Positions 40,067 to 64,000 of a stretch of DNA of 64,000 nucleotides are shown piece after piece. The notes under the pieces were generated by a model. The model was not told the DNA's origin. It saw nothing but the letters and a program-made list of their open reading frames with translations, and made no database searches. Location: the NCBI GenBank assembly GCA_041753875.1, contig CM085492.1, forward strand, positions 12,255,563 through 12,319,562, read 5' to 3'. A program made the translations under genes and the position numbers. Origin of the DNA: Acanthopagrus schlegelii. Taxonomy: Eukaryota. How positions within the stretch are numbered: the first letter of the stretch is position 1; each line of letters opens with the position of its first letter.

Positions 40067-40231
40067 GTGAGCAAATTGCACATCTGTCTGTCAGAGAAAA
40101 TACAGGATGTGGTGTTTCCTTCTCTCCAGAAAAAAACTTGTATGCATTTCATTGACGCATTGATGGAGAAAATGAGCTCCATATTTCGTGAATATTGAGA
40201 TCTTGTGTTGACTTGGTGTTTCTTTGTGCAG

Positions 40232-40361
40232 GGTCAGTATGTGATTGCTGGCTGTGCAGAAGGAGTGCTCCACGTTTGGACCTGGAAAACGGGTGTTGAA
40301 ATCTCCCACATTGCTGCACACAAGCAGCGTATCCATCACTGCTCCCTCCTGCCAAATACAG
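40232..40361 (+). CDS. tep1: tep1 WD exon; GQYVIAGCAEGVLHVWTWKTGVEISHIAAHKQRIHHCSLLPNT
   Basis: Acceptor ttgtgcag| and donor g|GTAAGC. Confidence 0.75.
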
Positions 40362-40491
40362 GTAAGCTTACTGGAAAATGAGTACAAGCACACTTACAGT
40401 ATTTGAAACTGCCTTTCCCTTTTAAATTCATACTATATGATATGATAAGAGTCCGAGGCTGAATTTTTTTTGTTTTTTGTTTTTACCACAG

Positions 40492-40565
40492 AAGTCAACC
40501 CAGAGGAGATGTCTGTTTTCACTGCGTCTGACGATGGTATAGTGCAGCTCTGGAAACCACTACAG
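40492..40565 (+). CDS. tep1: tep1 WD exon; (E)VNPEEMSVFTASDDGIVQLWKPLQ
   Basis: Matches human MLTASEDGSVRLWQVP. Confidence 0.85.
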
Positions 40566-40698
40566 GTCTGTCAGTGAGAATCAAAGTTTATGCATTTTAG
40601 TCTAGATGCAGGGAAATAATGACTTCCTCATGGTTTTTGAACATAACAGAGCACACACTGTCATTTATTTCTCTGTTTCTCTGTATCTTTACGTTCAG

Positions 40699-40825
40699 GT
40701 GGAGCACAGCATGACCTTCCAGGGTCACAGCGGTGCAGTATCTGCAGTTTCTTGCTTTGGAAGGTCCCCAGATTTCTACACTATTTCTGAAGACCGCTCG
40801 TTGCGATCCTGGTGTTGGACAGAAC
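40699..40825 (+). CDS. tep1: tep1 WD exon; VEHSMTFQGHSGAVSAVSCFGRSPDFYTISEDRSLRSWCWTE
   Basis: Track ORF 40606..40836. Matches human QTHTLLGHSGPVRAAAVSETSG. Confidence 0.9.
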
Positions 40826-41254
40826 GTAATACTTGATACTCTACCTTTATATAATGCCATGAATATGTATTTTACGCCTTACACTTTATGGATATACAAA
40901 TATACAACTGATTATGCAGCATATGCATCTTTCAAACAAAGTCGTCTGTGTTTTACGGTCTTGTTTTTTACTGATAAATTCCAGCATCTTTCATGAGATG
41001 AAGAAACACATTACCCAAATGTCTCCTTTTTACATCCAAACTAACCTGTCAGAGTTTGTTCATGTCTGCAGAATAATCTTGTCGATCTTCCATTAATCAA
41101 GTCACAATGTTCCAGGTCATCTTCATAATTTGAAAACACTCTTTTCTGTGTATATTACTCTTCGCAGTCGTCACATGACGCTCCTCAGTGAAGAAGATAC
41201 TACATGGTTAATAAGCAGTGTATCCCAGTTCACCTGTGTGTTCTGTCTTTCCAG

Positions 41255-41385
41255 AGGGATCTCCAACACAGAAGGGCTCAGTCACAGCTCTCTGCTTCTC
41301 TCCCGGAGATGATCTACTTCTCGCCGGTTATGAATCCGGTTTGCTGAGATTATGGCAACGCAACGCCGTGGTTGGACAAAAGCAG
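41255..41385 (+). CDS. tep1: tep1 WD exon; (Q)GSPTQKGSVTALCFSPGDDLLLAGYESGLLRLWQRNAVVGQKQ
   Basis: Track ORF 41218..41508. Matches human PRSSAAVTAVAWAPDGSMAVSGNQAGELILWQEAKAVATAQ. Confidence 0.9.
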
Positions 41386-41500
41386 GTGAAGGCATACATC
41401 AGTACACAAGAAATAAACGGATGTACAGTGGACACGTGTTTGTTTGGGTTAGATTTTCACATGCTGTGTCTGTGTGTGCGTACGTGTGGGTGTATGTCAG

Positions 41501-47220: not shown

Positions 47221-47612
47221 ATCCATGCACATGCACATATATACTTAACTAATATTGAGTAGTGTAATGTTTTAACACAGTATCTTTACTCGAATATGAT
47301 TTGTCTGTACTTTTAACAACACTGCTTACAAAAAACAGCCTTTTGAAACGAATGTATTTATTTTTTACCCTTGGCGAGGTCGACATTAGGAATTTCCGAG
47401 CAGTACGTGAAAGCAACATCAGCTCATCTCACAGACTCCCAGGTGAGTCTGACACGCCCTCTCTAGGACAACAACACACAGGTAACTAACAGGGACAAAA
47501 CTCGATGTGCTGGTTTCAGTGAGAGCTTTGTGGACACCTGCAAGTCGCAAGCATCTGTGGGACGTCTCTGACCGCAAGCGTTTTTCCTCCCCCCCTTCTT
47601 TTTTTTTTTCTC

Positions 47613-47799
47613 AGGGAGGAGTGAAAACAACCGGCAGTATCAACACGGGACGGACAGAAAGTCGACAAATCTTCACTAACAACACCAAACAGCGGCGGGA
47701 TAGCTTAACACTGAACAACTGCGGGATAACTCAACACTAAACAACTGCAGCATAACTTAACACTTACGTTACACAAGGGCGGACGTAAAGGAGCTAATG
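47613..47799 (+). CDS. putative first coding exon of the APOL-domain gene: mostly 5'UTR, ending with the start codon ATG (47797-47799) followed directly by donor GTGAGT
   Basis: Acceptor tttctcag| at 47612 and ATG|GTGAGT at 47799/47800. The next exon (47954) begins in phase 0. This is an inference; a possible upstream non-coding exon ends at 47446 (cag|GTGAGT). Confidence 0.3.
47690..47775. repeat. ~26-nt tandem repeat x ~2.5 (gatagcttaacactgaacaactgcgg / gataactcaacactaaacaactgcag / cataacttaacact)
   Basis: Read directly; it lies in the putative 5' exon just upstream of an ATG|GTGAGT junction. Confidence 0.6.
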
Positions 47800-47953
47800 G
47801 TGAGTTAACGTTCACATTCGTCCTCTACAAACGAGCTAATGTTCGTGTCGAGACGTTCTGCTGTCGACTGTCTCGAGACATTGTTCAAAATGTCGGTTAG
47901 CGTATCGTTAATGTTCAAATAACCGTTCATGACGATGTGTGTTCGTTTGACAG

Positions 47954-48019
47954 GAGCGATACGACAACCTGGATTTGGACCTGGAGTGTGATGGAGGAGG
48001 AGGAGGAGGAGGTGTAGCT
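47954..48019 (+). CDS. APOL-domain gene exon; ERYDNLDLDLECDGGGGGGGVA (phase 0-0)
   Basis: Acceptor tttgacag| and donor gct|GTGAGT. Contains a (GGA)7 run encoding poly-Gly. Confidence 0.4.
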
Positions 48020-49484
48020 GTGAGTAGATATCTTCTGATTATGAGCATAATCTAACTTTAGCCGGTTAACGTTTGTGGTTAAAGGTTTACTGTGTTGGAG
48101 TCACAGTTTTTCTCCTCGCTGAGGTCGGATGAGTAGAGTTCATCGATCCGACCTAAATCCATGTGACTGAAACTCAATACAGGCTTCTAATGCACAATGC
48201 AGTCCATAGGTATGTGCTCAGTGACATATTTTTTGTTGCTCTGGCTCGAAACTCCAACACAATGGACTTTAATATCAAATAATAAAAGATTAAATGAATG
48301 CTGACTTTTACCTTTAATTGGAGTGTGCTGTGTAGAAACTGTCCTTTCTTCATGGCCGGATTAACCTTCTAGGTTGCTCCAGGGCAAACATGTGCCATTG
48401 GGCCCCCTATAGCCCCCCTACACCAGATTAGCGATTAACCAGTGATGGAATGTAACCAAGAACATTTATTCAAGTACTATACTTAAGTGCAATATTAGTT
48501 TACGTATACGTACTACTTTTTTCTGTGTCTGTTTTCAATTGTTCACGATAAGGAGTGAGCATTTGTGGCAGCAGGCGCCACCCAGAGAAAAGGCGCAGGT
48601 CCCAGCATCTTTTATTTCCGCTTCACTGTCGCTCTTTTTTCTTTTTCCTGGCCTAGTCAATAATATTCACCATATTTTTGTCTTCTACGGATCATGTTGT
48701 GAACCGACATCGTCCATGCTCTGATGTCCTGATGTCAAATTAAAACGAAATAGATGGTAAACCGTAAAAGGGCAGATGTCAAGATATTGTTTTCATAGAG
48801 ACAACGTCACACGTGCAGCCTTTTTTCTCTCAGCACACAAGTGCTTAATTAATAAATGCCCCTGAGCACACAGCCTTACATTTTCTGCCTGAAAAAATGC
48901 TATGACATTGGCCCAAAGGTTACTTGTTACTTTGCAGATTGCATACATCATCAGAGCTATAAAAAAAAAAGGCATTATAGTTTTGGTTTATTATGATCTA
49001 TCAGTAATGCCTGTGGGTGCTGTTTTATGTGATTCTTAAACAGGTTAATAGTATTATGATCAATTTTCCCTGGGCTAGAAGACATAATTTTCACATAAAT
49101 TAATATTCTCATAAATTAACTGTCATCAAGGTTTCAAGTCCAGACATGAAACCAGCTTCAAGTCCAGGCTTGAAATCTCGATGTGAAACTGGACTGTGAG
49201 AAGTAAACCAGTCAGTGCTCTCATCCATAAATCCATTAGAAAAGTGTTGGTCATTTGCAGCGTCTTTTGCAGTTCAGTCTCCATGTGAAGCAAATATGAT
49301 GCTGCTGACTCACAGGTCTCTGCAGTAGATGTTTGCCCTGTGTTAGTCACTCATTTTGAATGATGCCGGTATGTCAGAACTGAAACCACTTCAGAGATTA
49401 GTCTTATGTAATCATCCTGAGTGGGTTTTACATGTATATCATTCACTAAATGTGTTTAATTTTCCACTTTCACCTCCCATGCAG

Positions 49485-49556
49485 CAGAAAGTGGCAATAT
49501 TTGGTGGGATGTTCAAAAGATCCTCCAAGATTGCTGAACCATCCGCGCAATCACAG
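49485..49556 (+). CDS. repeat-array exon, type A (basic); QKVAIFGGMFKRSSKIAEPSAQSQ
   Basis: Track ORF 49356..49568. Acceptor catgcag| and donor cag|GTGATG, phase 0-0. Confidence 0.55.
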
Positions 49557-49851
49557 GTGATGTTGTAGTTTTATCCTTGTTTAATTTAAATGTAGAACCT
49601 AACATTTAGTAAACCAGTACACTGAAAAGAGATCTCTCGTGAAAAGCTTATATTGACTATTAATCCCTGATACTAGTGTTTAAGATGGTTACTCATACTC
49701 ACATTGTTGACATGTATAACAATAAAATTGCTATAAGCGCTATCTTGTAAAACAAGTAGTTAGAATTCAGAAATGAAACGTAAAATAAAATGTGTTTATG
49801 ATTTGATTTGCTTCCGCATTTACTCACATCAGTTCTGTACTGACTTTTCAG

Positions 49852-49917
49852 GACACATTATCAGTGAACAGCGACCTTTCAAAGAGCAGCGACAGTCTGA
49901 CTGACAGCAGCACAAAG
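49852..49917 (+). CDS. repeat-array exon, type B (acidic/Ser); DTLSVNSDLSKSSDSLTDSSTK
   Basis: Acceptor ttttcag| and donor aag|GTGATG, 22 codons, 0-0. Confidence 0.55.
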
Positions 49918-50045
49918 GTGATGCTCACTATTTAATTTTTCTTTTCTAATCTTATGTCTGGTCATCACCAACTGTGATCGGCGTGTTATTATTAAATGAC
50001 AGTGTTTCTTGAGCATGTTGACAGTAAATTACATTCATCTTTCAG

Positions 50046-50114
50046 GAGAAAGGAGGCGTGTTGAAAGGAATGTTCAAGAAGACGACCAAAACCGCCAAAG
50101 AGGGCCAATCACAG
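50046..50114 (+). CDS. type A; EKGGVLKGMFKKTTKTAKEGQSQ
   Basis: Acceptor ttcag| and donor cag|GTTTGT, 23 codons, 0-0. Confidence 0.55.
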
Positions 50115-50485
50115 GTTTGTAGTGGTTTAACTACAGTTTAACTGAAGTTATTAGTAGATGGCTTATTGTTAAAGCCATTTATATTTATCAAACACATGCT
50201 AAACATTTGCTGGTTCCAGCTTCTTAAATGTGAGGATTTGGTGCCATTTTTCCCCTAAAAATATCACTGTTAATTCAAATATCTGTGGACTTTTAAGTCT
50301 CTAAAAGCTCTTTTGTCATTACTCTAAAAAGAATACTGACTTGAGTACTCAAAATGTGTTTTGAATCTGTCAACAAAATGGGAACAACTAAAAAAAGGAT
50401 TGTCTCAAAATGATTAAATATTTTAATTTGTGTCTCCACAATTGTATAGAAATATGAGAGGTTAATCGTTTTTTATCATTTATAG

Positions 50486-50557
50486 GACACCCTTTCACTA
50501 CAAAATCCTGAACTGTCTGTCAGTAGTGACAGCTTAACAGACAACAAGTCCTCAAAG
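50486..50557 (+). CDS. type B; DTLSLQNPELSVSSDSLTDNKSSK
   Basis: Acceptor tatag| and donor aag|GTGAGT, 24 codons, 0-0. Confidence 0.55.
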
Positions 50558-50645
50558 GTGAGTTAACTCTCTGCTCTGTGATATTTTCCCACGCAGAATT
50601 TTGTCTTGTCAGTCTTTAAAGCTAATCCTTTCTCTACACTTTTAG

Positions 50646-50717
50646 GAGAAATCAGGTGTGTTCGGTGGGATACTGAAACGAGCTGGTAAACCAGGACACG
50701 CCCGGAGGCCTTCACAG
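50646..50717 (+). CDS. type A; EKSGVFGGILKRAGKPGHARRPSQ
   Basis: Acceptor tttag| and donor cag|GTGAGA, 24 codons, 0-0. Confidence 0.55.
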
Positions 50718-50837
50718 GTGAGACAGAATCTTCTGTTATATGTCAGAGATAATGTATACCATTTGAAAACACAGTGGTCAGCTTAATGCCAGATATGTAA
50801 AATGTCTATAATTGTGATGTAACATTGTGTGTTTCAG

Positions 50838-50900
50838 GATCTGTTGGACAACGACTTTACAGCCAGTAACGACAGTCTGTCTGAAAACACTGCAACTAAA
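50838..50900 (+). CDS. type B; DLLDNDFTASNDSLSENTATK
   Basis: Acceptor tttcag| and donor aaa|GTGAGC, 21 codons, 0-0. Confidence 0.55.
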
Positions 50901-51705
50901 GTGAGCCTCATCAGCCAAGTTTTTTATTTAAAGAAAACAAAGAACAAAGTCTTTGTTCTTCAATGCTCTTTTTAAATATTTTGTTAATAAAATCACTGTA
51001 TGTCAATCAACCAACAAAAATTGGGGAAGATTCAAAAGAAGTCTTGTTACAGTGGCAATTTTGTATTTTTTATTGGTAGTTTTTATTATTTGTAACTATT
51101 TATTTGTAAGTTTTTGTTTGAGCTCACCAAACTAAATTCCTGTCAACTATGTTTGATGGCACCAAAGTTTTGAATCTTGAATTTGATTAATGTGTGTTAA
51201 ATTATTATCAAACAGTCAAAGTAAGAACACATGTCTGTTGCTGTTATTTATTTAACACTTATCAAGTGAAGAATCACATCACTTTGTGTCCAAGAGATGT
51301 TTCTTAGGACAAAAAACTACTTTACCAACACTGAGTGTTCAGTATTGTCAAGTTGGTATTGAAGAATAGAAACATACAGTACATGTGAGGGATTTTGCTT
51401 GGTGTTAATTAGGGACGTATGATGGTCTTTCTGATGTTGTTCAGCCTACAGTAGGCGTGTGGACCTCAACTCAGGTTTGGAAGGGTGTGTTTTTGTTTTT
51501 GTGGGTGTTTGGAAGTGTGAGCTGAACCTGCTAGCATCAGCAGTATGAAAGAAATGCTGGCTCCTGCGTGTAAAGCACAAAAGGCCTGCCTGTCCATCTG
51601 ACAGCTGCATCAGTTCAAAAGACAACAGAGCTGGTTTGATTTTATTTTATTTCAACAAACTGTATATATGTATATATGTGTCTTTTACGATGTGTCTTTT
51701 TCCAG

Positions 51706-51771
51706 GAGACAGGAGGAGTGTTCAGTGGGATGTTTAAAAAAAAGCCTTTTGGAGCGAGGACACAATCTCAG
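51706..51771 (+). CDS. type A; ETGGVFSGMFKKKPFGARTQSQ
   Basis: Track ORF 51676..52050 frame. Acceptor tttccag| and donor cag|GTGAGA. Confidence 0.6.
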
Positions 51772-51861
51772 GTGAGAGTTGTGCATCTTACTCTACCTCT
51801 GTTACATCATTTGAAAATAAACAATAATAATCAGGTGGGGACATTTGTTTCTTGCCTTCAG

Positions 51862-51930
51862 GAGGATTTGTCTGCACCAAGCGAGCTCTCAGGCAGCACT
51901 GACAATCTCTCTGTGAATAGCAACACTAAG
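51862..51930 (+). CDS. type B; EDLSAPSELSGSTDNLSVNSNTK
   Basis: Acceptor ccttcag| and donor aag|GTAAAG. Confidence 0.6.
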
Positions 51931-52555
51931 GTAAAGTTTGTGAAAGCTTCACCTTACATCAAACATACAAACTGTCCTCAACTTGTGATATTAAAGCTGC
52001 CATGGCAGTTCCTAGCAGCACAGTTCTTCCTTGTTTTCATTCTAAACTGAAGCTGCACTCATGATACATCTCTGTTTTGGTTTACATTTGCCCCTTTGTC
52101 CATCCACTTCAATTTTGAAATCTGAATAACTGATTTAAGCACGCATTTCATGTTCTAGTGCAACTTCTACCTGCACCATCAACTATTTTAAACATTGGTG
52201 CTTTGAAATGAATAATGAATGAAGTCATAATACTTGAATTTATATTTATTTCTTCTTTTACTAAAGTATAAGATCTTAATATTCTTCCATGTCTTATACT
52301 TTTTCGGAGCTGAACAGTTACATTGAATAATGTGACTGTCCCCAATTGTTTGTACAGAGCTGAAAGCATTGGATGAGAATTTGTGAGATGTGTGTTTCTG
52401 TTTTTGTTTTGATGTGTGTTGGGAAGGATGAGAGGTAAAACTTCATCCATCAGCATTTTGAAGAAAGTACAGGCTGCAGTGTGACATCCCTGCCCATCCA
52501 TCTGCCACCTGAAAAATCTCTTAGTAATTCTTTCTTTTGTTTGACTTTTTTACCA

Positions 52556-52627
52556 GGAGACAGGAGGGATCTTCAGTGGGATGTTTAAAAAATCCCCCAA
52601 GCCTTTTGGAGCAACAACACAGTCTCA
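52556..52627 (+). CDS. type A; ETGGIFSGMFKKSPKPFGATTQSQ
   Basis: Acceptor ttaccag| and donor cag|GTGAGA. Confidence 0.6.
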
Positions 52628-52712
52628 GGTGAGAATTGTGCTTCTCACTTGTACCACTGCATCATTAGGAGACAATAGTAAATGAAAGGGGATGTTGTTT
52701 TCTCGCTTTTAG

Positions 52713-52781
52713 GAGGATTTGTCGGCACCCAACGAGCTCTCAGGCAGCGCGGACAATCTTTCTGTGAATAGCAACACTAAG
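52713..52781 (+). CDS. type B; EDLSAPNELSGSADNLSVNSNTK
   Basis: Acceptor cttttag| and donor aag|GTGAGG. Nearly identical to 51862..51930. Confidence 0.6.
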
Positions 52782-52857
52782 GTGAGGAACACTTTATTAA
52801 ATTCCTCTATTTTTGGCAAAACTTCATACACTGTTCTCATGTGAATTTTGTTTCCAG

Positions 52858-52923
52858 GAGGGAGGAGGGATTTTTAGTGGAATGTTTAAAAAAAAGCTTC
52901 TTGGATCAAGGACACAATCTCAA
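52858..52923 (+). CDS. type A; EGGGIFSGMFKKKLLGSRTQSQ
   Basis: Acceptor gtttccag| and donor caa|GTGAGC. Confidence 0.6.
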
Positions 52924-53022
52924 GTGAGCATACGATATATATACATCTCACCATTAAACCATGTGACCATAAATTATTAGAATTAAAAATTAATTGACTG
53001 GCTTTTTTTTCTTGCCTTGAAG

Positions 53023-53091
53023 GATGATTTGTCTGCTCCCAGCGAGCTCTCGGGCAGCACCGACAATCTGTCTGAGGGTAAAGACACTAAG
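53023..53091 (+). CDS. type B; DDLSAPSELSGSTDNLSEGKDTK
   Basis: Acceptor ccttgaag| and donor aag|GTGAGG. Confidence 0.6.
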
Positions 53092-53596
53092 GTGAGGTTT
53101 GTCAAAACCACCCACGCCAATCTTCAAGCGACACAACACTTTAAGTGCAATCCATATTCATAAATGTGCTCATATTAAAGGTGAAATAAATGATATTTGC
53201 TGTCATTAGACATGGCACTAGAACACGAGCATCTCAGACCAAAACAAATGTGTGCTTCGCTCACTCAGTAGAGTTGAAACTCAGAAGAAACTGTCAAACT
53301 ACATAGGCAGTGCTGATCAAATATGAATCAAGCCTCTGTTGCTACAAAGTCTTCATGCAAATGTTTTCAGAAACATACTTTTGTGAGCTGTTTTAGCTTT
53401 GATATGAGAAAGTTCCTCACCAGGCCACCATGTTGAAAACGGAGAAATTCACATTACAGGCACACACAGGCAGATGTGACAACATTTTCTTCTCAGGATG
53501 CCATTTTTACTTTACATAGCAAATGCCTGTTTACCCCTATATACATGTTCAAAATCTTATATATTTAACCTTCAACATTTGGCTTCATATTCTCAG

Positions 53597-53656
53597 GAGA
53601 AAGGAGGAATCTTTAGTGGTGTGTTCAGAAAAAAAGTCACCAAATCTCAGTCTCAG
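53597..53656 (+). CDS. type A; EKGGIFSGVFRKKVTKSQSQ
   Basis: Acceptor ttctcag| and donor cag|GTAAGA. Confidence 0.55.
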
Positions 53657-53896
53657 GTAAGATGATAATAATAAGGTTTTCAATGCTGATGTGAACCCTT
53701 TTTTGGTGGTGTAAAAAAGATAGGGATCAAACCAGAGATGTTGAGAATAAAGTACGAATGCAATATGTTGCAGCAGTTTTCACCATCCTTTTTCCCTTCA
53801 GTCATTGAGAAACATGGTTGATAATTCACACATTTAATAAAACACTTGAGCATTTTCGTCTTGGTTAGTACATTCTGATTGCATCTCTCTGTTTAG

Positions 53897-53962
53897 GATG
53901 ACTTGTTTGCCGATGGGGAGCTCTCTGCCAGCAGTGACAGCCTCATAGAGGCGTCTTCAAAG
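53897..53962 (+). CDS. type B; DDLFADGELSASSDSLIEASSK
   Basis: Acceptor gtttag| and donor aag|GTAAGA. In-frame with track ORF 53903..54130. Confidence 0.55.
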
Positions 53963-54158
53963 GTAAGAGGTGAGGCTTTTCGCCTCTTATTGTCTTTTCA
54001 CTTGGACACGCACTGCATCAACACTAAGACATATACAGGAAATATATCAGTTTGTAACTTCCTTAAATTGTTTGCATTACAAAGGACTTTACAGCCAGTA
54101 AATTGCACTTCTGGTCATGTTCTGAGATGAATGACATGCTGATAATGTATTGTAACAG

Positions 54159-54224
54159 GAGAAGGGTAAGACTGAACAATCAGGAGATCTAAAGGAGAAT
54201 ACAGAGAAACCAAAAGCCAAGCAG
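54159..54224 (+). CDS. charged exon; EKGKTEQSGDLKENTEKPKAKQ
   Basis: Acceptor taacag| and donor cag|GTGGGT, 0-0. Confidence 0.45.
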
Positions 54225-54357
54225 GTGGGTTGTTATGCTAGAGCAACTGCATATCCTCTCTAAATAAGATCTGCTGTGCTGATACAGTGAGGGTCAGGGT
54301 TACAATCCGTTTATTTTTGTGACAGTAACAGTATCTTTGTGTTTTGTGTTTCTTCAG

Positions 54358-54405
54358 AATGGTTTCAGTGCGATGATGAAGAGCACATTCTACACTGAAA
54401 AACAG
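54358..54405 (+). CDS. exon; NGFSAMMKSTFYTEKQ
   Basis: Acceptor ttcttcag| and donor cag|GTGAGA, 0-0. Confidence 0.45.
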
Positions 54406-54595
54406 GTGAGAGGTGGCAGACTGTTCTTTTGATATTTGCTACATGTCATTGGTTCATCTCTTCCATTAATTGATTAGTATATCTGGCAGAAAAGGCAAAA
54501 ACATTGTATGAACTCATGAATTAACCCACATGATGTACTATTGTTGCTATTGTCTCCTGTTTATAATCTACATTACATTTTGGCTCCATGTGCAG

Positions 54596-54658
54596 GAGAA
54601 GAACTCTGACTCTGAGGAGATATTGGACAATGGAGATGACCAGCCCAGTCACAAACAG
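54596..54658 (+). CDS. exon; EKNSDSEEILDNGDDQPSHKQ
   Basis: Acceptor gtgcag| and donor cag|GTTTGT, 0-0. Confidence 0.45.
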
Positions 54659-54758
54659 GTTTGTTAAGTTTTGTGTTTTAGTGTCAATCAGCAGTTTATT
54701 CTCTGAATGTGCTTCTTATTTTATGTCGTTTACTCTGTTTATTTTGTTTCATATTCAG

Positions 54759-54812
54759 AAAAAACTCACTGATGCGATGACAAAGCTGAATCCATTTCGA
54801 TCTGCAAATAAA
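54759..54812 (+). CDS. exon; KKLTDAMTKLNPFRSANK
   Basis: Acceptor attcag| and donor aaa|GTAAGA. A paralogous exon lies at 55921. Confidence 0.5.
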
Positions 54813-54906
54813 GTAAGAAATTATTACATTTTCTTTTGAGAAAATGATTATTGAAAGAGATTCTATGTGTTTTTCATGAAGTATGGCTTTATGTGTTCCC
54901 TCTGCA

Positions 54907-54978
54907 GCATGAGAAGCAGGCTGACTCAGATGACGAGGATCCACCTGTGAGCAGTGAGAAGTCATCAGGCAACAAACA
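54907..54978 (+). CDS. exon; HEKQADSDDEDPPVSSEKSSGNKQ
   Basis: Acceptor ctctgcag| and donor cag|GTGCTT, 0-0. Confidence 0.45.
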
Positions 54979-55920
54979 GGTGCTTTAATATTTACTTGTT
55001 CCTGTTTCATTGTGTTAAATTCGGCATCGGGGTTTTTTATGCATTTAACCAGTTATTTTTATTCAGTGCACACCTGTCACACTGAGAGGCAGAACAGCCT
55101 GTACAGTTTAACTGTTATTACTCAAGACGAAGTTTAAAACTTCATAATAACCATCATCAAAACGGGTACATTTATGGTTAATTGAACTTTAGTTTCTAGT
55201 TAATAATAATTGTAGAGGTTTATAAATGTAAGTTGCATCTTTGCCTTGTCTAGTCATATAATGTTTTTAGATGAACTACACAGTATTTATTAACCACATA
55301 CAAAGTATTTTAAATATCAGTAGCAACTTTACAATAAACACTTGCTGATTGAATGGTTTATATAGCATTTCTCTTTTTGTTAACAAAAGCAAAAAACCCA
55401 TTATGGTGTTACTGATAACATTCAGGAGAAGGGACAGACTTGACCAATATAGAAACATGGGTATCACGTGATTCCAACAACATTATACTACTGACTGACA
55501 AATCTTATTAGAAGCTGGAACCATCAGAATTCTTACACAGAATAAAACAATTATTTTTGAAAACCTTTTCAGGTTATTGATTCACAATCATAATACTGTT
55601 TTTTAAGGAAAATAAATTATTTTATTCTACATTTTTCCTCAAGCTTTGTATTTATTTTAATTTCTTTATGATTTGTTTATAGTCTAGAGTCATGAGTCAG
55701 AAGTGAGGTATGTGATCCTCAGGCTCTCTCTGCAGTTCAGCTTCACTTGTCATGCCTGGGCTTGTTGAGGTTGTCTTTCAAGTTACATGGAACAGCTCCA
55801 AATACTACAGACCAGGCATAATTGTTGTACAGTACTGTGGGGTAACATTGACCAGTATGTCATCTCGGCTGACTTATTGGTGTTACTTATTTCCGATGTT
55901 GTGCCCCACCACCCCCCCAG

Positions 55921-55974
55921 AACGCCATGGTTGGAGCCATGTCCAAGTTGAACCTATTCCGCTCTGCAAATAAA
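55921..55974 (+). CDS. exon; NAMVGAMSKLNLFRSANK (paralog of 54759..54812)
   Basis: Acceptor cccccccag| and donor aaa|GTAACT. Confidence 0.5.
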
Positions 55975-56999
55975 GTAACTATGCTGTTGATTGTGTTTGG
56001 CAGTGGTGGAGGTGTCTGGTAATGATGTTGTAGGTGACGGGAAGTGTCTGTGGTGGTCATGGGTCTGTGATGGTGGTGATGGTTCAATGTTTCATTTTAG
56101 AAAGTTGTGATGATGTGCTGCAGACGTAAAGGACCATTTCCGTGATTTTTGCCTGTTGTACCCAGTTTGCCACAAATAACATTTATATCGAGACCCAACC
56201 ATTTTACAAAACGAAGTTGATATGATTTGAATTTTGGGGTATTGGTCTAACTGCTTAAGGCAACCATTGTTTTACATGTATTTCAGTAAAATATGAAAAT
56301 CAATATCTCTTCACAATTTTTGGCAACAATTAATACAGGATTGATGTTTTACTGTGATAAATAACACAACTAAAGTACAGTAGTTTCAAGAGTCTGCCTT
56401 TTGATTTTCATACCATTCAGAAATGAATGAAAACCAATGGCTGCCAGTCACAGAGTTAAAGGAACAGTTAACACAAAATGAAAATTCAGTCATCATCCAC
56501 TCCCATGCTGATGGAAAATCAGATGAAGTTTGTTAATCTGCAAGGAGCTTAAAGAGTTGCAGCATTTTCTTCAACAACTAAAGTAGTTGGGGACTAGTTT
56601 TAAAACGAAAAAACCAACAGAATATATTAAATGGCTTCATACAGCTCGTCAGGTGTAATACAAGTCTTCAGAAGCCTAGAGATCCCAAATTGATTTGATA
56701 AGGCGTAATTTACAGCATAATTTACAGCATAATTTGCAGCTACAGTGAGCTGCTAAAGCATTACCTTAAACCCAGTTTACAGTGTGAAGTAAACTTTGTC
56801 AGTTGTTTAGATGAATGCTGCAACCCTGTTCTGCTGTCAAGCTCCCGAAATGTTTTGTGGACTACGAAACAGCACCTGACTTTCCATCATTTCTTGGGTA
56901 ACTGTTCCTTCAAACTCGCAAAAGCAAAAGTGGTCCTTTAATGGCTGCACAAGTAATCAGATATTGGTTGATACAATTGATTTCATGTCCTTTGATTAG

Positions 57000-57065
57000 A
57001 AAGACACAGAAGATACTGAGAAGCTCACGGAGGACGAGCAACGAATGGAAGAGAAGCCGAAAGTG
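57000..57065 (+). CDS. exon; KDTEDTEKLTEDEQRMEEKPKV
   Basis: Acceptor gattag| and donor gtg|GTCAGT. Confidence 0.4.
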
Positions 57066-57297
57066 GTCAGTCTATTTTTTGCATCACTCATGAGTCATCA
57101 GTGACTGCACGCACACACACACACACACAGCTGAGCTGATCAACTTCTGTCAAAAATACCCTCTACTCTCATACCTCCTCTTCCCCCACCTTCACCACAT
57201 CCTCCTCATCCCCTTTAAATCCTGCCTGCTCACTGTCATACGTCCCCGTCTTCCTGCTCCACCACACTGTGTGACTCTGTCTGTGTGTCCTTGTCAG

Positions 57298-57375
57298 GTC
57301 AAAAGCAACATGATCCAGCAAGAGAGAAAAGACAGAAGTGAAACACCAACGGTCCCGCCTAGACCAACTGAAGAG
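57298..57375 (+). CDS. exon; VKSNMIQQERKDRSETPTVPPRPTEE
   Basis: Acceptor ttgtcag| and donor gag|GTCTGT. A paralog lies at 57766 (..PVVPARPSEE). Confidence 0.45.
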
Positions 57376-57483
57376 GTCTGTATGCAGTTGAACACAGCTC
57401 AGTGACATGTGGTCCGAGTGAGACTCTTCTCACCTCTGCTCTGTCTGTTATAATGTGTTGTTAAGGCTGCCATCTCTCCACAG

Positions 57484-57543
57484 GAGATGAAGAGGACGTC
57501 AACATACAACAAAGGAAAACCAATAGGAGCTGAGGATAATAAG
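57484..57543 (+). CDS. exon; EMKRTSTYNKGKPIGAEDNK
   Basis: Acceptor ccacag| and donor aag|GTAAAG. Confidence 0.45.
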
Positions 57544-57765
57544 GTAAAGTTTACCCTTCTCTGATTTAGAAGGTGTTCTGTGGGTTGTCTGCTTATTTCT
57601 GCTTAATCAGAGTTTGAATATGTGAAGGTATCTGTATGAACACGAGTAAAATCAGTTAATGGTTCATTTATTTTCCAGTAAGCAGGAGGCCATTATGAAT
57701 GTGCTTTAAAATGTAAGGCTTTCACTGGAGTCTGTTTTTTTTCCCATTTATTTTGTCCTCTGCAG

Positions 57766-57846
57766 AATAACAAGGATATGACCTCCAGAGAGAAAAAAGC
57801 AAAACCTGAAAAAACTCCAGTAGTTCCTGCCAGACCATCAGAAGAG
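57766..57846 (+). CDS. exon; NNKDMTSREKKAKPEKTPVVPARPSEE
   Basis: Acceptor ctctgcag| and donor gag|GTAGTT. Confidence 0.45.
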
Positions 57847-57965
57847 GTAGTTTAAGCTTTCAGTCTCTAGAAAATAAGTGCTGTTGGTATCAGTTTGGAG
57901 CAGATGTGTATCGATGCTGCGTTATTAGCTCTGTGGTTATAGAAACTGCTCTGGGTTGATTTCAG

Positions 57966-58013
57966 GAGCTAAAAAGAGCAGACAGACAGTTAACGCAGAA
58001 CAGAAACCATCAG
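57966..58013 (+). CDS. exon; ELKRADRQLTQNRNHQ
   Basis: Acceptor tttcag| and donor cag|GTACTG. Confidence 0.4.
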
Positions 58014-58299
58014 GTACTGACATGTACACACAATATTAGACTGATGTATTAGTTGACTGATATTTTGGACCAGTATTGTTTGTTTAAACTGGATATCAGC
58101 TCATGGATATAAAAAGGTTACAGGCCCCCTTTGTCAAAAATCACTTTTTGACCTTGAATGTGGAAAAAGATGTCAGTGCAGAGTTTGACTCTAGAAGCCT
58201 GTTTTTACGTACCCACATCTGCTTTTTGTGACATTGCAATTATTCAACTCAGACGAGTATGATTGGCAACAAAAAACACAGTGCAAGTGGACTTTTCAG

Positions 58300-59000
58300 T
58301 GAAATGGGAGACACCTTGTTTCAAGCAGTCAGCTAAGATCCTCAGGCAGGAACTTGCTAACTGTTCCCAGCTCACGCCTTAAGGAAAGAGGGGACAGAGC
58401 GTTTACTGTCAGGGCTCCTCGGCTGTGGAACGACCTGCCTGAGGAACGACAGCTGAGTACATGAGTGTCCTCTTTAAAATCACTTTGATAGGGTTAGGGT
58501 TATTAGGACTTATTTTTATTGAAAGGCCCTCCTGACATTACACTTAAGACTTGCATGGCTGTTCTAAATGTCCAGGAGGTGCGGGAGTGAGGCACCAATG
58601 ATCTCTTCTGCAGCATTCACTCACTATGCGCTGCAGAGTTTTACAATTAGAGGTGCTGCAAATTCCAAACCATGCAGTGATGCAGCTGGTGATGCTTTCA
58701 ATGGAACAGCGGTAGAAGGAGCACTTGATGGGTGCGGGGCTCTGACCCTCTACAGATTGTGGAGATCGTAGAGGCGCTGCTGTGCTCTCTTGGCAAGTGA
58801 TGCAGTGTTGTTGGACTGGGAGAGGTCTTCTGTGATGTGCATGCCTAGAAATCTGGTGCTGCTCACTCTCTCCACAGCAGAGCCATTGATGGTCAGCGGG
58901 TGGTGTTGGATCCTGTTTCCCGGACGTCAGTGACCAACTCCTTCGTTTTGTCTTCATTTAGGGAGAGGTTGTTGTCACTGACCACATCACTTTCATGCTC
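58300..59000. repeat. teleost interspersed repeat fragment (carries the ..RAFTVRAPRLWNDLPEE.. coding remnant on + and the SIESITSCITAWFG.. / TLQRIV.. remnant on -)
   Basis: Plus strand 58370-58460 encodes KGDRAFTVRAPRLWNDLP, a motif recurrent in fish genomes. The minus ORF 58544..58957 matches the well-known CITAWFGxC..LQRVV repeat-encoded peptide. It sits inside an intron of the surrounding gene. Confidence 0.55.
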
Positions 59001-59581
59001 ATGCCTGGATACAGGCCCCTGGGGACAGTCGCATTCATTGGATTTTAAACAAGGGAAAAAAGTAGATGTAATTTTAACAAATAGTTAGAATCAGAGCATT
59101 CAGTTTATTCATTTTTTTTTTTAAATCCAAGCTGTTTCAAGTTATCTCTGTTTTTTAAGAGAATAACTGTAATGAAAGACCCTGAACAGTTTCTGGCATG
59201 AAAATCTTAACATTTTTAGACTTAATATTTGCATAAAACTTTCGCTGTAAAACTAAAAATAATATCACCATATGCTTTTAGATGTCAAAGTCTGGCATGC
59301 AGAAACACACCTTATGCAAACCATGACATAGAAGTGGGGCGGCTGTGGTTCAGGAGGTAGAGTTGATCGCTGATCTTATGGTTGGTGGTGCAATCACCAG
59401 GTCCTCCTGTCCTCAAGTTGAAGGATCCTTGAGCAAGACAGTGAGCCCCACATTGTGTGTGAGTGGGTGGCACAAAGCTAGTCAAGTGCATTGGTAAAAA
59501 GTGGTTTATCAGTGCTGTCATTTGCACTTTGCTAAAACATTTATAGTATAATTTGAATCTAATAAATATAATTTGCTGCAG

Positions 59582-59662
59582 AACCAATCAGATGATGAAG
59601 GCCTCAAAAAAGATGAATCTGCTGAATCCAAAGACGAGACGAACTATACAGAAAGCAAAACA
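59582..59662 (+). CDS. exon; NQSDDEGLKKDESAESKDETNYTESKT
   Basis: Acceptor ttgctgcag| and donor aca|GTAAGT, 0-0. Confidence 0.5.
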
Positions 59663-60034
59663 GTAAGTTTATCTCTTTATTAGTGATGGGACAGATTATT
59701 ACTGTACTAATCTTTACTATAAGAAAATAGTTTGATACACACAGTGAAATATGTGTGTTTATTTGTATTTGTGCGTCTATTTGTAGTATAAATCCACATT
59801 TGCTGCAACGTGCAGGTGAAAAACAAGCATGAGTATCTGCTTCGGTTATTCAGCCTGGATCTTATCATTCCACTTCCTGCTGCTTTCTACTCAGTTCTTT
59901 CATGCCAGAGCCATGCACAGATGTAGTTCTTTAATTCAGTTGTAAGTCTGCTGCAGCTATAATGAAATGTAGTTCTTCCAGTTATTGTTTTTCGTGTCAG
60001 CTGACAAATTTTCACCATGCCATTTCTTTTGCAG

Positions 60035-60088
60035 ACCAAGGTGAAAAAACACAAGCATAATCCGTTCATGCCGCGAGTTGCAGCCAAG
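60035..60088 (+). CDS. second array, type C; TKVKKHKHNPFMPRVAAK
   Basis: Acceptor ttttgcag| and donor aag|GTATGT. Confidence 0.55.
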
Positions 60089-60204
60089 GTATGTGACAGT
60101 GTGTGTTTTTCTGGATTTTGCAGTTCATGTAGAGTTGTGAAGACATTTATATTTTAGACTCTCATCAACTGGTCATCATCAACACTTCTTGTTGTTTGCT
60201 TCAG

Positions 60205-60291
60205 GCTTCGTCTGATGATGAAGGGCTGAAAGAAGATGATGATTCTTCATCCAAAGAGGAAAAGAATGATGAGGAAGACAAAGCTGAGGAG
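60205..60291 (+). CDS. second array, type D; ASSDDEGLKEDDDSSSKEEKNDEEDKAEE
   Basis: Acceptor gcttcag| and donor gag|GTCTCC. Confidence 0.55.
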
Positions 60292-60452
60292 GTCTCCAGC
60301 TTTTTTTTTGTGCTATTTTTGCTTGTAGATTGATTTAAATATACACTGCTTGATTTTTACACATACAGTCAGCAGGACCAAATATTCATGTTACTGTCAT
60401 TACACATATTTAAGGTCTCTCTTCCTCAAAGTGACCAAATTTTTCTTTTCAG

Positions 60453-60503
60453 ACCAAACTCAAGAAACCTAAGAGACACAATCCCTTCATGCCTCGGGTC
60501 AAG
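60453..60503 (+). CDS. type C; TKLKKPKRHNPFMPRVK
   Basis: Acceptor cttttcag| and donor aag|GTAACA. Confidence 0.55.
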
Positions 60504-60629
60504 GTAACATCCAAACATGTACAAACTAGTTGTACTTGTAAATGAACAAACCTTTATGTTACTGTCATGTTTTGTACATGTTTATTTATTTCATTGTTAG
60601 GTTTACATGTTTGTTGTTGTTTACCTCAG

Positions 60630-60722
60630 GCTTCGTCTGATGATGAAGGTCTGAAAGAAGAAGATGATTCTTCATCCAAAGAGGAAAAGAATGACGAGGA
60701 GGGAAAAGACAAAACAGAGGAG
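60630..60722 (+). CDS. type D; ASSDDEGLKEEDDSSSKEEKNDEEGKDKTEE
   Basis: Track ORF 60567..60767 frame. Acceptor cctcag| and donor gag|GTCTTT. Confidence 0.55.
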
Positions 60723-60899
60723 GTCTTTAAATTCTTTTCCTTTTGCTGCATTTTGCTTGTTGATTGAATAAAATGTTCATGGTTTGTTTTTGACAATGAA
60801 AAGTTATCAAGAACAATTGTTCATTTTACCTGAAAAACTCAGAATGTGACGCGTATCTTCCTCAAAGTGATACTGAAACCATGATTTTCTTCTTTTTAG

Positions 60900-60950
60900 A
60901 CCAAAGTCAAGAAACCGAAGAGACACAATCCCTTCATGCCTCGGGTCAAG
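60900..60950 (+). CDS. type C; TKVKKPKRHNPFMPRVK
   Basis: Acceptor ctttttag| and donor aag|GTAACA. Identical intron-flank sequence to 60453..60503. Confidence 0.55.
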
Positions 60951-61045
60951 GTAACATCCAGACATGCGCCTCTGTGAAGGACTATCAGTTAAAGCATTTC
61001 TACTTTCAATTTTAAAAAATCTGTCTTTGTGTTGAATGGTTACAG

Positions 61046-61096
61046 GGCAGAGTTAAAGCGAGGGGAGAGGGTGGAGCTGCAGGCAACACAGCAGAG
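61046..61096 (+). CDS. exon; GRVKARGEGGAAGNTAE
   Basis: Acceptor ttacag| and donor gag|GTAGAG. Confidence 0.45.
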
Positions 61097-61126
61097 GTAG
61101 AGAAAATAAAAAGCTCTTGAGACGAT

Positions 61127-61130
61127 CTTT

Positions 61131-61166
<36 letters not shown>

Positions 61167-61168
61167 TC
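61127..61168. repeat. (TTTC)n microsatellite, ~10 units
   Basis: Read directly from the sequence. Confidence 0.9.
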
Positions 61169-61835
61169 ACTCACTCTTCTTTCAATTCTTATATCTTCGC
61201 TCATTGCCTTTCCCTTCCCCGTCTGTATGAGTTATTCATCCACCATACTGAAGTATTGTAGTCTTGCTCATTGTGGTTCAGGATTACAACAGGTCTGTTT
61301 CAGTCACCTGAGCCCTCCCTGTAAACCACCTCTGTCTTTTGTTTGTCTCCAGGGCGTTCGCTTATCTCCCAACAGAGATTGTTATAGTCATCCTGCGTTT
61401 TGTTGCTGTTGTTGTGTTTTTCCCCTCCACTGTCGACACTGAACCCACCCCCACACCTTCACTCCACCAGGCAGTTTTTGTGCATGCCCATAGCTTGGAA
61501 GATAATGTGGGTTTAAGTTGCAATGTGCCCAGACTTGTTTCTCTGCTTCCGTTTTCAATGGGTCCATGGAAATTTTTGTCCCTTTTCACTTCTGCAAAAA
61601 CAGCACAAATATGTCAGTACAGTCAGAATCCCTTTTACCATCACTTCCTCCTCTTTATCTGAGCATGTACAGAGAAAAAGTGAAACTGAGGATATGTGAC
61701 ATTTGATGTATTAATTGTATTGTACTGCTGTGATATACACTTCAGCAACACTTTAGACAAAGGAAAACAAATCTTGTTATGATTTTTTTTATGATAATGT
61801 ATGATTTTAAAGCAGTATTACCTCTATTGTTTCAG

Positions 61836-61913
61836 AATGAAGGTCAAAAAAGGACCTTGTTTGACCAGCTGGATGACTACCGTATTGACCCGGCACAGGG
61901 TGAAGAAGGACAG
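61836..61913 (+). CDS. exon; NEGQKRTLFDQLDDYRIDPAQGEEGQ
   Basis: Acceptor tgtttcag| and donor cag|GTTGGT. Confidence 0.5.
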
Positions 61914-62039
61914 GTTGGTTTCTGAAGAAAAATATACCATCACAAGTAACATTTCAGTATAATCTGATACCACATTATTAACCGTTTGATATGCAGCCAT
62001 AAACATGCAAATCAATACAAATGTAATGGTGTCTTTCAG

Positions 62040-62079
62040 GATGTGGAGGATCTCATGGAGTGGTGGGACACAGTGGAGT
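62040..62079 (+). CDS. exon; DVEDLMEWWDTVE (phase 0-1)
   Basis: Acceptor ctttcag| and donor t|GTAAGT. Confidence 0.5.
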
Positions 62080-62793
62080 GTAAGTCACAAATTATTTTTT
62101 AGGCGAGATATTTAGTTTTCACATCCATAATATTACCAAAGGTTTGCGGATATAACCTGTTTTTGTACTTCAGTGTGCTGTTTCTTATGTTTGTTGCCCC
62201 TAAGTTCCAAATAAAGAAAATGTTTACAGCGTACAACTATAGTTAAGAAAATAGTCTGGGAAAGACCCTTTTCTGTTCCGACAGTTAGGGAAAATTTGAT
62301 TTAATTTCCAACTATTTTAATAATCAATTATTTGTTTCAGTCATTATTCAGGTAAAAATGTCAAACATTTGCTGGTTCCAGCTACTTTTCTTTGTCATTT
62401 ATTATAGTAAATTAAGAGTTTTTGGGTTTTGTACTCATGGTTGGATAGAAAAAACACATTTTTGGCACTGTAGAAAGTAAAAGGTCTAGGCTACTCAGGA
62501 AGGAAACGTAATGTGACCAAGTTGCTCCTTGGTAGGGAACACCAAAGTTCAAAAACTTTGTAGGCTTTTAAAAAAAATTTTTTCCAGATGAGTGCCTTGG
62601 ATTTTTCTCTTTCTTGTATTCCAACATTAGTGTTGGGCCTCTCTGATGTGTCTGTAAATCTGAAACCAGAGGATCAGAGCCTTTCTTTGGTTCTGGATGT
62701 TTTTTGTTTTTTTCTGATGTCCACATACTTTTGTCCATGTAATATATGCAACATTATGAGAAAGATCAATGTAATTCCTTATTCCTTCTCCAG

Positions 62794-62845
62794 CTTGGGA
62801 AGACACGGCTCAGGATGATGACATGACAGAAAAAGAAGAGGCCAA
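62794..62845 (+). CDS. exon; (S)WEDTAQDDDMTEKEEA (phase 2-2)
   Basis: Acceptor ttctccag| and donor aa|GTAAGT. In-frame with the neighbouring exons. Confidence 0.5.
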
Positions 62846-63296
62846 GTAAGTGTATGCTCATATAGGTGATGATGCAGTATTTCACTCCCACATTTTATAA
62901 TGTCTTCCATGACCCCAGTATAATGAACGAGAGAAAGAAACTCTGGATATTACTCTGTCATTACTCTGGATAATCCACAGAATAAGCTGTCAGCAGTTTT
63001 CATAGAGACTATCTCTTCAGAGAGAGAGCTCCAAAGAGAAGGGTTAACAGCAAGCTTTATGGATTATCAGAGTGATCAGAACTTGAGTGACAGAAGAGAC
63101 ATTACTGTTTTCTAAATGCAGTTTGTCAATGCTTTTTGCAACAGAAAAATACAAGTATTTTCCTCTATTATATTGGAGAGGAAGCTGGATATTTAAAAAA
63201 CTTGGTCAAATTAAACCACCACCATCTGCATGGCTAAATACAAACGGGTTATAAGAGTTATAGTCTGTATAATTCCTCTTAACTTGCTCCTCTCAG

Positions 63297-64000
63297 GGCT
63301 TTTGCTGTGACCGCAGAGAAAGTGCAGAAGGGCATCCGTGTTTTCAACAAACTGTTCTCGGAGCGCGCAGAGAGCCTCTGGCAGCACGTCATCGACCTCA
63401 ACACCATTGCAGATGGCCTGGACAAATTCAGCAAAAAGACCAAGATCGCCCAAATCACTGGTGGCTCCACCAGCGCCATCGGAGGCGTGGCCACGATTGC
63501 CGGCCTCGCTCTTGCACCAGTCACCATGGGAACCTCCTTGATTGTGACAGCAGTGGGACTGGGTGTTGCCACGGCAGGCGGTCTGACATCAGCAGGGGCC
63601 GGCATCTCCAACCAGGTAAACAATTCGATGGACCGCAAGAAGGTGGAGAAGATCATTAAGGATTATCAGGACAAGATGGTGGACCTCAACAAGTGCCTGA
63701 AGTTCATCAAGCAGGGGATTGAGAACCTGAAGAAGTTTGACCTGCTCAAGATGAAGGACAACGCTTACAACCGTGACTTCCCTGTGCTCACTGCTCAGTT
63801 CTATGAGGACGGTGCCATGGCAGGAAAGGCGATCCTCATCAACGCTAACGAGATCATGCGTGTGGTGCAGATCGCTAACGTGGCGGGCAGCACGGCCGCC
63901 AGAGCGGTCCAGATCGCCAGTATGGCTACTGGTGTACTCACCGGACTTTTCGTAGGTATGGACATTTACTTTGTGGCCAAAGACTCGAAAGAACTCAAGA
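63297..64000 (+). CDS. Apolipoprotein-L (APOL) domain terminal exon, partial; runs off the window. (K)AFAVTAEKVQKGIRVFNKLFSERAESLWQHVIDLNTIADGLDKFSKKTKIAQITGGSTSAIGGVATIAGLALAPVTMGTSLIVTAVGLGVATAGGLTSAGAGISNQVNNSMDRKKVEKIIKDYQDKMVDLNKCLKFIKQGIENLKKF...
   Basis: Acceptor tcctctcag| at 63295-63296. A long open frame continues to the window end. It carries the APOL-family hallmark ...LDK..KK..IA.ITGGS.SA.GG..TIAGL.LAP.T.G.SL..TA.G.G.A.A followed by a coiled-coil-like KK.EK...D.QDKM region, comparable to the human APOL1 LADELDKVHKGCNIANVVGGSTGAVGG..TIAGLILAP.T.G.SL segment. It is not on the ORF track because there is no stop within the window. Confidence 0.75.

Follow-up and report, generated by a model that had tools for sequence, protein, structure and literature searches.

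A single apol1 gene joins N-terminal exon arrays to a C-terminal ApoL domain in the sparid fish Acanthopagrus schlegelii

The window analysed here is a 64,000-nucleotide stretch of the Acanthopagrus schlegelii genome (GenBank assembly GCA_041753875.1, contig CM085492.1, positions 12,255,563 to 12,319,562 of the forward strand). On the evidence of gene structure and orthology, positions 47797-64000 of its forward strand almost certainly hold most of a single gene, the sparid orthologue of teleost apol1. The gene model was built by hand and then verified by script, and runs from 47797 to the end of the window as 38 exons with AG/GT borders throughout, which together form a single 3052-nt frame encoding 1017 amino acids. 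Exons 1-35 are whole-codon exons in phase 0/0 (48-93 nt), and the final three, at 62040 (40 nt), 62794 (52 nt) and 63297 (terminal), start in phases 0, 1 and 2. Each rebuilt exon was recovered in other teleost proteins by alignment to 16 diverse orthologues and by tblastn, so the exon chain is no product of chance. The original prediction had proposed 39 exons in one continuous frame, the last of them a terminal APOL exon; the continuous frame, the phase chain across the last three exons and the identity of the terminal exon were all confirmed, whereas the exon count was corrected to 38. The repeat-exon arrays of about 12 kb that it described proved to be genuine exon families at the DNA level, but 12 kb is their genomic span, and the array exons encode ~2.3 kb, or ~780 amino acids.

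The coding part of exon 1 (47797-47799, forward strand, as are all features of this gene) is the ATG alone, directly followed by a GTGAGT donor, and the orthologues and an RNA-assembly contig of a related fish described below (L001) likewise begin M-ERYDNLDLDLEC. It lies within a CpG-rich putative promoter and 5′ untranslated region (UTR; 47601-48200), where the CpG observed/expected ratio is 1.15-1.26. A 26-nt unit repeated 3.2 times (82% matches) was also found within this CpG-rich stretch, at 47681-47764. Exon 2 (47954-48019) encodes ERYDNLDLDLECDGGGGGGGVA, an acidic N-terminus without a signal peptide, and shares 98% DNA identity with positions 208-258 of L001. Exons 3-16 (49485-53962) form seven A/B exon pairs, as defined by the exon model, the repeat families D1, D3 and D5 and the orthologue alignment, and lie at 49485-49556, 49852-49917, 50046-50114, 50486-50557, 50646-50717, 50838-50900 and 51706-51771 (exons 3-9) and at 51862-51930, 52557-52628, 52713-52781, 52858-52923, 53023-53091, 53597-53656 and 53897-53962 (exons 10-16). 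Directly past the exon 16 donor, at 53963-54010, the frame reads ..GEAFRLLLSFQ.., which resembles a decayed 'GG..K.LKNPF.SS.Q' exon; this additional NPF exon is kept in most other teleost orthologues (e.g. GEAGSKLWNPFSSSSQ in P0067, the L001 protein), and its loss seems, from these comparisons, to be specific to the sparid lineage.

Exons 17-22 (54159-55974), supported by repeat family D7 and the orthologues, comprise a linker and two xxLxxAMxKLN[PL]FRSANK exons, one with NPF and one with NLF, alternating with acidic exons (54159-54224, 54358-54405, 54596-54658, 54759-54812, 54908-54979 and 55921-55974). Two PxxPxR motifs (PTVPPR and PVVPAR) are encoded by exons 23-27 (57000-58013; individually 57000-57065, 57298-57375, 57484-57543, 57766-57846 and 57966-58013), which rest on the exon model and the orthologue alignment. 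The last of these, the 48-nt exon 27, is the least conserved exon of the gene (0.35 identity, found in 11 of the 16 orthologues), is skipped in the closest annotated isoform and is probably a cassette exon. Intron 27 (58014-59581) is large and contains sequence resembling interspersed repeats, as well as long open stretches on the opposite strand. Exons 28-33 (59582-60950; families D2, D4 and D6) are three acidic SDDEGLKEEDDSSSKEEKNDEE exons alternating with three basic TKVKKPKRHNPFMPRVK exons, at 59582-59662, 60035-60088, 60205-60291, 60453-60503, 60630-60722 and 60900-60950. They are followed by exons 34 and 35 (61046-61096 and 61836-61913), the linker into the folded part of the protein; positions 2043-2100 of L001 align to 61834-61891, downstream of the exon 33 block. 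Exon 36 (62040-62079) encodes DVEDLMEWWDTVE, a conserved double-tryptophan (WW) helix opening the structured module, and exon 37 (62794-62845) encodes (S)WEDTAQDDDMTEKEEA, with 0.86 identity among orthologues and an alignment to L001 positions 2165-2215. Exon 38 (63297-64000), the terminal ApoL-domain exon, is cut by the end of the window and is 99.6% identical to the Acanthopagrus latus orthologue (P0001).

The array exons are related to one another by duplication. A repeat search at the DNA level grouped exons 9/11/13, 10/12/14, 28/30/32, 31/33 (94% identical) and 20/22 into families, and exons 30-31 and 32-33 (60186-60966) were found to be a tandem duplication of ~435-447 bp that includes the intron, the exon copies being 91-94% and the intron copy 78% identical. 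This duplication is more recent than the remaining exon duplications. Tandem Repeats Finder, run on 40-64 kb, returned four short non-coding repeats only and did not detect the exon arrays because the exon copies are too diverged and too widely spaced. At the protein level, the A exons are basic-aromatic (..GG[IV]FSGMFKK..QSQ; net charge +2 to +5) and the B exons are acidic and Ser-rich (DDLSxxSELSxSxDSLSxxxxK; DDLSAPSELSGSTDNLS...K; net charge -2 to -5), and in exons 28-33 the acidic exons carry a net charge of -5 to -11 compared with +6 to +7 for the basic ones. Computed per exon, the net charge thus alternates regularly from one exon to the next across the N-terminal region. The array exons share 0.6-0.75 amino acid identity among the 16 distant orthologues, and the reading frame is kept in all of them.

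The predicted protein is divided between this array-encoded region and a membrane-type module at the C-terminus. The terminal exon matches the Pfam ApoL domain (PF05461) at E=1.1e-28, its score of 101 bits exceeding the curated cut-off of 25.9, and the full-length A. latus orthologue scores 122 bits over profile positions 43-297 of 298, with ApoL the only domain that Pfam finds. Lys, Ser, Glu and Asp abound in the N-terminal 782 residues, whose mean hydropathy is -1.32. Hydrophobic windows, defined as 19 residues with a mean Kyte-Doolittle hydropathy above 1.5, occur only at residues 842-882, a Gly/Ala-rich hairpin, and at residues 986-1010, a second helix, and the columns of both are nearly invariant in a 47-sequence alignment. 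No signal peptide was found: the protein starts with an acidic stretch (MERYDNLDLDLECDGGG), and the first 840 residues are free of hydrophobic windows. AlphaFold2, applied with the 47-sequence alignment as input to the 95%-identical A. latus orthologue rather than to the window protein itself, gave a mean predicted local distance difference test score (pLDDT) of 42, with residues 1-720 below 50 and devoid of secondary structure, and helices from residue 724 onwards. In the same model the WW segment forms a helix at 724-735 (block pLDDT 61-81), and in the C-terminus, where an amphipathic or leucine-zipper-like helix would be expected of the ApoL family, helices span residues 992-1023 and, at the very end, 1056-1072, the matching part of the window gene lying beyond 64000. 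A search of PDB sequences with the C-terminal module returned nothing significant (best matches E = 0.06-0.2), and a phmmer alignment of the ApoL hairpin (63450-63600) with the hydrophobic hairpins of the bacterial alpha-pore-forming toxins NheB (6tao) and MakE (6w08), at E = 0.2, was treated as chance, curious though the likeness is.

The NPF motif occurs four times in the predicted protein, in exons 20, 29, 31 and 33, compared with ~0.05 expected from composition in 780 residues. The copy closest to the ApoL domain, in exon 33 (N674, P675, F676), is invariant in 47 of 47 aligned sequences, from paddlefish to percomorphs, as are L729, W732 and W733 (exon 36) and W739 (exon 37) of the LMEWWxxVExW segment. 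NPF copy number varies from 1 to 7 between lineages, and is 0 in the paralogue family described below. The WW segment was considered as an LC3-interacting or adaptor linear motif, and this was set aside because AlphaFold places the segment in the helix that opens the structured module, so that it was read as part of the fold.

The search of a 5.8-billion-protein collection with the 1017-residue product showed that full-length, collinear orthologues with 100% query coverage exist in ~100 teleost species, sharing the N-terminus MERYDNLDLDLEC and having ApoL as the sole Pfam domain. The best match was 'apolipoprotein L1 isoform X2' of A. latus (1074 amino acids, 95% identity), followed by proteins of Pagrus major and Sparus aurata. 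One match (P0067) comes from a Logan RNA-assembly contig (L001, 4159 nt), which contains a whole 992-codon open reading frame, beginning with MERYDNLDLDLEC and running through the arrays and the ApoL domain as far as a stop codon, and ~1 kb of 3′UTR; as the complete frame is present without introns, L001 represents a spliced mRNA. Aligned to the window, L001 falls into separate collinear blocks that match the exon borders, including those at 60.9, 61.83, 62.80 and 63.30 kb, and these blocks bridge the interval (60.9 to 61.8, 62.8 and 63.3 kb) in which a gene boundary had been suspected. Exons 34-35, in the same interval, keep the frame and were conserved in each of the 16 orthologues sampled. 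The CpG-rich stretch around exon 1, at 47.6-48.2 kb, is a hint of a promoter there; no other 400-nt window in 44-64 kb exceeds an observed/expected ratio of 0.8, and no CpG-rich segment was found at 61-62 kb.

The single-gene reading in the original prediction is therefore upheld by the ~100 collinear orthologues and by the intron-less contig across the suspected boundary, and two of the checks it had named gave concordant results: the protein-database search, made with the whole product, recovered the same N-terminus, exon order and ApoL C-terminus in ~100 teleosts, and the scan for an internal promoter at 61000-61800 found no CpG-rich segment. Its statement that known APOL proteins have short N-terminal regions is true of the mammalian APOLs and of the zebrafish apol1 of the literature. 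The suggestion that the architecture might be undescribed fails because the layout is routinely annotated in databases, being present in RefSeq and UniProt for many fishes and in more than a hundred fish genomes altogether. Both the gene and its layout can already be found in public annotation, and neither is a new kind of system.

Several points weigh against the single-gene model. The terminal exon runs past the end of the window, leaving ~57 codons, the stop codon and the 3′UTR beyond 64000; L001 comes from a related fish and not from this species; and the orthologous gene models are automatic. Shorter isoforms may also arise by internal initiation or by intronic polyadenylation at an AATAAA at 61105. 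This hexamer lies 9 nt into intron 34, where read-through would add VEKIKSS and then a stop (...AEVEKIKSS*), and the number of AATAAA hexamers around this stretch is at chance level. Short database models of 347-445 amino acids were rejected as evidence for a separate gene because their starts fall inside shared sequence or within a few unconserved residues: P0415, P0368 and P0420 start at the internal Met of 'NPFMPRV', P0113 starts within shared sequence, and P0126 and P0129 join a few unconserved residues to shared sequence. Such starts are typical of truncated predictions, and the short models inspected did not share an alternative first exon for the ApoL part. With these points included, we hold the explanation as a whole, a single gene whose product would act as a scaffold, with good though not complete confidence.

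That the one gene gives rise to several products, through cassette skipping, internal starts or a polyadenylated form without the ApoL domain, is compatible with this explanation and is evenly balanced on the evidence available. RefSeq isoforms run up to X16 within a species, all array exons are in phase 0, so that skipping any one of them would leave the frame intact, particular A. latus isoforms lack exon 27 or exons 32-33, and the AATAAA at 61105 would serve an early end. However, the isoform counts stem from automatic models, no transcript was seen that would point to a percomorph form lacking either the ApoL domain or the arrays, and an array-only paralogue model (P0207) may be a partial prediction.

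Within Teleostei, the long layout has been annotated in groups that range from Elopomorpha (Megalops, 772 amino acids; Anguilla; Gymnothorax) and Clupeiformes to Percomorpha. Protein lengths are ~1000-1200 amino acids in percomorphs, 550-750 in salmonids, 520-800 in catfishes and 570-690 in characins. Cypriniform proteins, including that of Danio, have ~440-490 residues (~460 in cyprinids) and no arrays, and in the non-teleost ray-finned fishes the proteins are likewise short and array-less (paddlefish 390-417, gar 352-412, bichir 293-321 amino acids); a caecilian homologue has 286. A 691-residue gar model was examined as a possible case of arrays outside teleosts and was rejected, its extra N-terminus having neither A/B arrays nor NPF; the extra sequence looks like part of a second ApoL-like gene. 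Automatic names given to orthologues of this gene (piccolo, starmaker-like, dentin sialophosphoprotein, titin homolog) are low-complexity artefacts.

A second teleost family, 'apold1a' or si:rp71-1g18.13 (P0140, P0153, P0133 and P0137), combines arrays of the type EKGGIFSGMFKKSPKP / ELSASNDSLSD with an ApoL domain that is ~40% identical to that of apol1, and has no NPF and a K/E-rich C-terminal tail of 400-500 amino acids. Alternating-charge arrays are thus common to teleost apol1 and apold1a, and are absent from the gar, bichir, paddlefish and tetrapod homologues seen. Judged from the lineages sampled, the arrays seem to have originated in teleosts before the apol1/apold1a split and to have been lost later in cypriniforms.

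The arrays may form a teleost-specific, functionally important multivalent module by which an APOL membrane protein would become a scaffold for endocytosis or recycling, using NPF-EH, PxxPxR-SH3 and phospho-regulated basic-aromatic membrane contacts, an idea that we put forward tentatively. The specific mechanism, a membrane-anchored cytosolic scaffold for EH-domain trafficking proteins, is offered in the same speculative spirit. Inserted from the cytosolic side, the ApoL hairpin would anchor the protein in an intracellular membrane or the plasma membrane, as in mammalian APOLs that lack a signal peptide, and the disordered N-terminus would reach into the cytosol and serve there as a multivalent adaptor. 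EH-domain trafficking proteins of the EHD, Eps15 or intersectin type could be recruited by its NPF motifs and SH3 proteins by its PxxPxR motifs, while the basic-aromatic GGIFSGMFKK blocks could lie on acidic lipid surfaces, by analogy with the effector segment of MARCKS, which is also basic-aromatic. The acidic Ser-rich blocks could then act as counter-charges tunable by phosphorylation, giving reversible membrane adhesion; alternatively, the blocky charge pattern might drive self-association. Exon duplication and loss would tune the valency. As all array exons are in phase 0, duplication, loss or skipping alters the valency without breaking the frame, in agreement with the wide variation in length between lineages and with the number of isoforms annotated.

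A number of observations count against such a scaffold. The NPF motifs stand in a basic context (KRHNPFMPRVK), whereas EHD-type EH domains prefer acidic residues after NPF, and the NPF copies are not independent of one another because they arose by exon duplication. The apold1a family has arrays yet no NPF, and cyprinids manage with a single NPF and no arrays. The cytosolic topology is one that we infer only from the missing signal peptide. In favour of the scaffold, NPF is an established ligand of the EH domains of endocytic and recycling proteins (PMC2238750, PMC12808100); against it, the second of these papers recently reported POLE2 as another NPF receptor.

A different account of the arrays is that they are neutral 'junk' coding sequence generated by runaway exon duplication, with only the ApoL module and the adjacent NPF/WW segment being of consequence. 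Array length does vary more than 2-fold among teleosts, with complete loss in Cypriniformes, the array-less zebrafish protein still gives knock-down phenotypes (PMC4492502, PMC4854397), and the recent duplications take in intron sequence. This account is nevertheless improbable, as the A and B motifs have been kept from tarpon to percomorphs and in a long-diverged paralogue family, the 16 distant orthologues retain 0.6-0.75 identity with the frame always kept, and the alternation of charge is strictly preserved. Two adjacent genes, a disordered-repeat gene ending at ~61.1 kb and a short APOL gene starting at ~61.8-62.0 kb, with the long models being read-through products or chimeras, would accommodate the in-frame Met of exon 36 (LMEWW), the AATAAA in intron 34 with the frame closed after 7 read-through codons, the 2.6-kb span of the zebrafish apol1 locus in the literature (PMC4492502) and the models of only 347-445 amino acids, but are very unlikely indeed given the one frame through both parts on L001, the collinear full-length models in ~100 species, the conserved, in-frame exons 34-35, the lack of a recurring separate first exon among the short models inspected or of a CpG-rich region at 61-62 kb, the chance-level AATAAA count, and the short cyprinid, gar and paddlefish proteins, which keep an NPF- or WW-containing N-terminal stretch continuous with ApoL.

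The window has a composition of 36-45% GC, with many short AG/GT-bounded open segments, and these features, together with the database matches, mark it as teleost nuclear DNA. A PARP catalytic exon lies at 2343-2567 on the forward strand, and a Bax1-I/TMBIM exon (7773-8003) and a RING-finger exon (16070-16408) lie on the reverse strand. The apol1 gene is directly downstream of a TEP1-type gene with TROVE, DUF4062 and TEP1 beta-propeller WD40 exons (~25900-41500, forward strand). A fused TEP1-WD40 plus ApoL model in Scortum barcoo (P0099) suggests that the two genes stand in this order in that percomorph too.

For the window, the annotation question is settled in favour of one gene rather than two. 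Of wider relevance is that zebrafish apol1, the only experimentally studied fish APOL, comes from a lineage that lost ~600 residues of N-terminal arrays, and conclusions drawn in zebrafish may therefore not transfer to most fishes; that the model organism for 'fish APOL1' lacks the arrays is little appreciated. Should the arrays be a functional module, its loss in cyprinids would make zebrafish apol1 a poor guide to the fish gene. The invariant NPF and Trp-rich helix beside ApoL, conserved from paddlefish to percomorphs, could also provide a handle linking intracellular APOLs to the EH-domain trafficking machinery. The overall importance of these findings is modest. Literature searches (apold1a; apolipoprotein L with teleost and disorder; apolipoprotein L with NPF/EH) did not turn up an account of the long form, probably because the arrays have been lost in zebrafish and other cypriniforms. 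A study of APOL evolution derives the family from an APOLD1-like ancestor, with APOL1 arising in primates, and does not treat the fish forms (PMC8557400).

Among known systems, the closest are the models of A. latus, Pagrus major and Sparus aurata (LOC115573344), which have the same N-terminus, exon order, A/B arrays, NPF exons, WW helix and ApoL domain and, on this resemblance, are the same gene in sister species or the same genus. The A. latus protein differs at the isoform level only: exon 27 is skipped, another exon 9 donor is used and the Gly run of exon 2 is shorter. Name and sequence place zebrafish apol1 (NP_001025309) in the same orthologue group, of which it is the only member with a published function, studies of a 2.6-kb locus and a short protein having reported podocyte and filtration-barrier phenotypes (PMC4492502, PMC4854397); the zebrafish protein is without a secretory domain, according to Anderson et al. 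2015 (PMC4492502). Like the window protein, those of Danio and carp have the NPF and the LMDWWNTVEQWEDM helix, and their ApoL domain is very similar to its own. Both the A/B array and the PxxPxR region are missing from these cyprinid proteins, which have just one NPF, and as they are short, published zebrafish work never met the long architecture. Members of the apold1a family (e.g. O. mykiss LOC110508496, P0140) resemble the window gene in having long N-terminal arrays, an LLDWWxxVEGW helix and an ApoL domain.

More distant are mammalian APOL1-6 and APOLD1, which have in common with the window protein the Pfam ApoL domain and the hydrophobic hairpin; APOL2, APOL6 and APOLD1 are likewise without a signal peptide, and mammalian APOLs of this kind are located at internal membranes, on the cytosolic side (PMC8557400). 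N-termini are short in the mammalian proteins, in contrast to the ~750 disordered residues ahead of the domain here. Human APOL1 is primate-specific and secreted (PMC8557400), so the name 'APOL1' does not imply one-to-one orthology, and the window gene, whose product has no signal peptide, is unlikely to be a strict orthologue of it. The trafficking literature offers a comparison of another type in the multi-NPF endocytic adaptors (epsin, Numb, Rabenosyn-5 and MICAL-L1 type). These adaptors have no sequence relationship to the window protein, in which the NPF context is basic and binding is predicted only, but like it they carry several NPF motifs in a long disordered region joined to a membrane-binding module.

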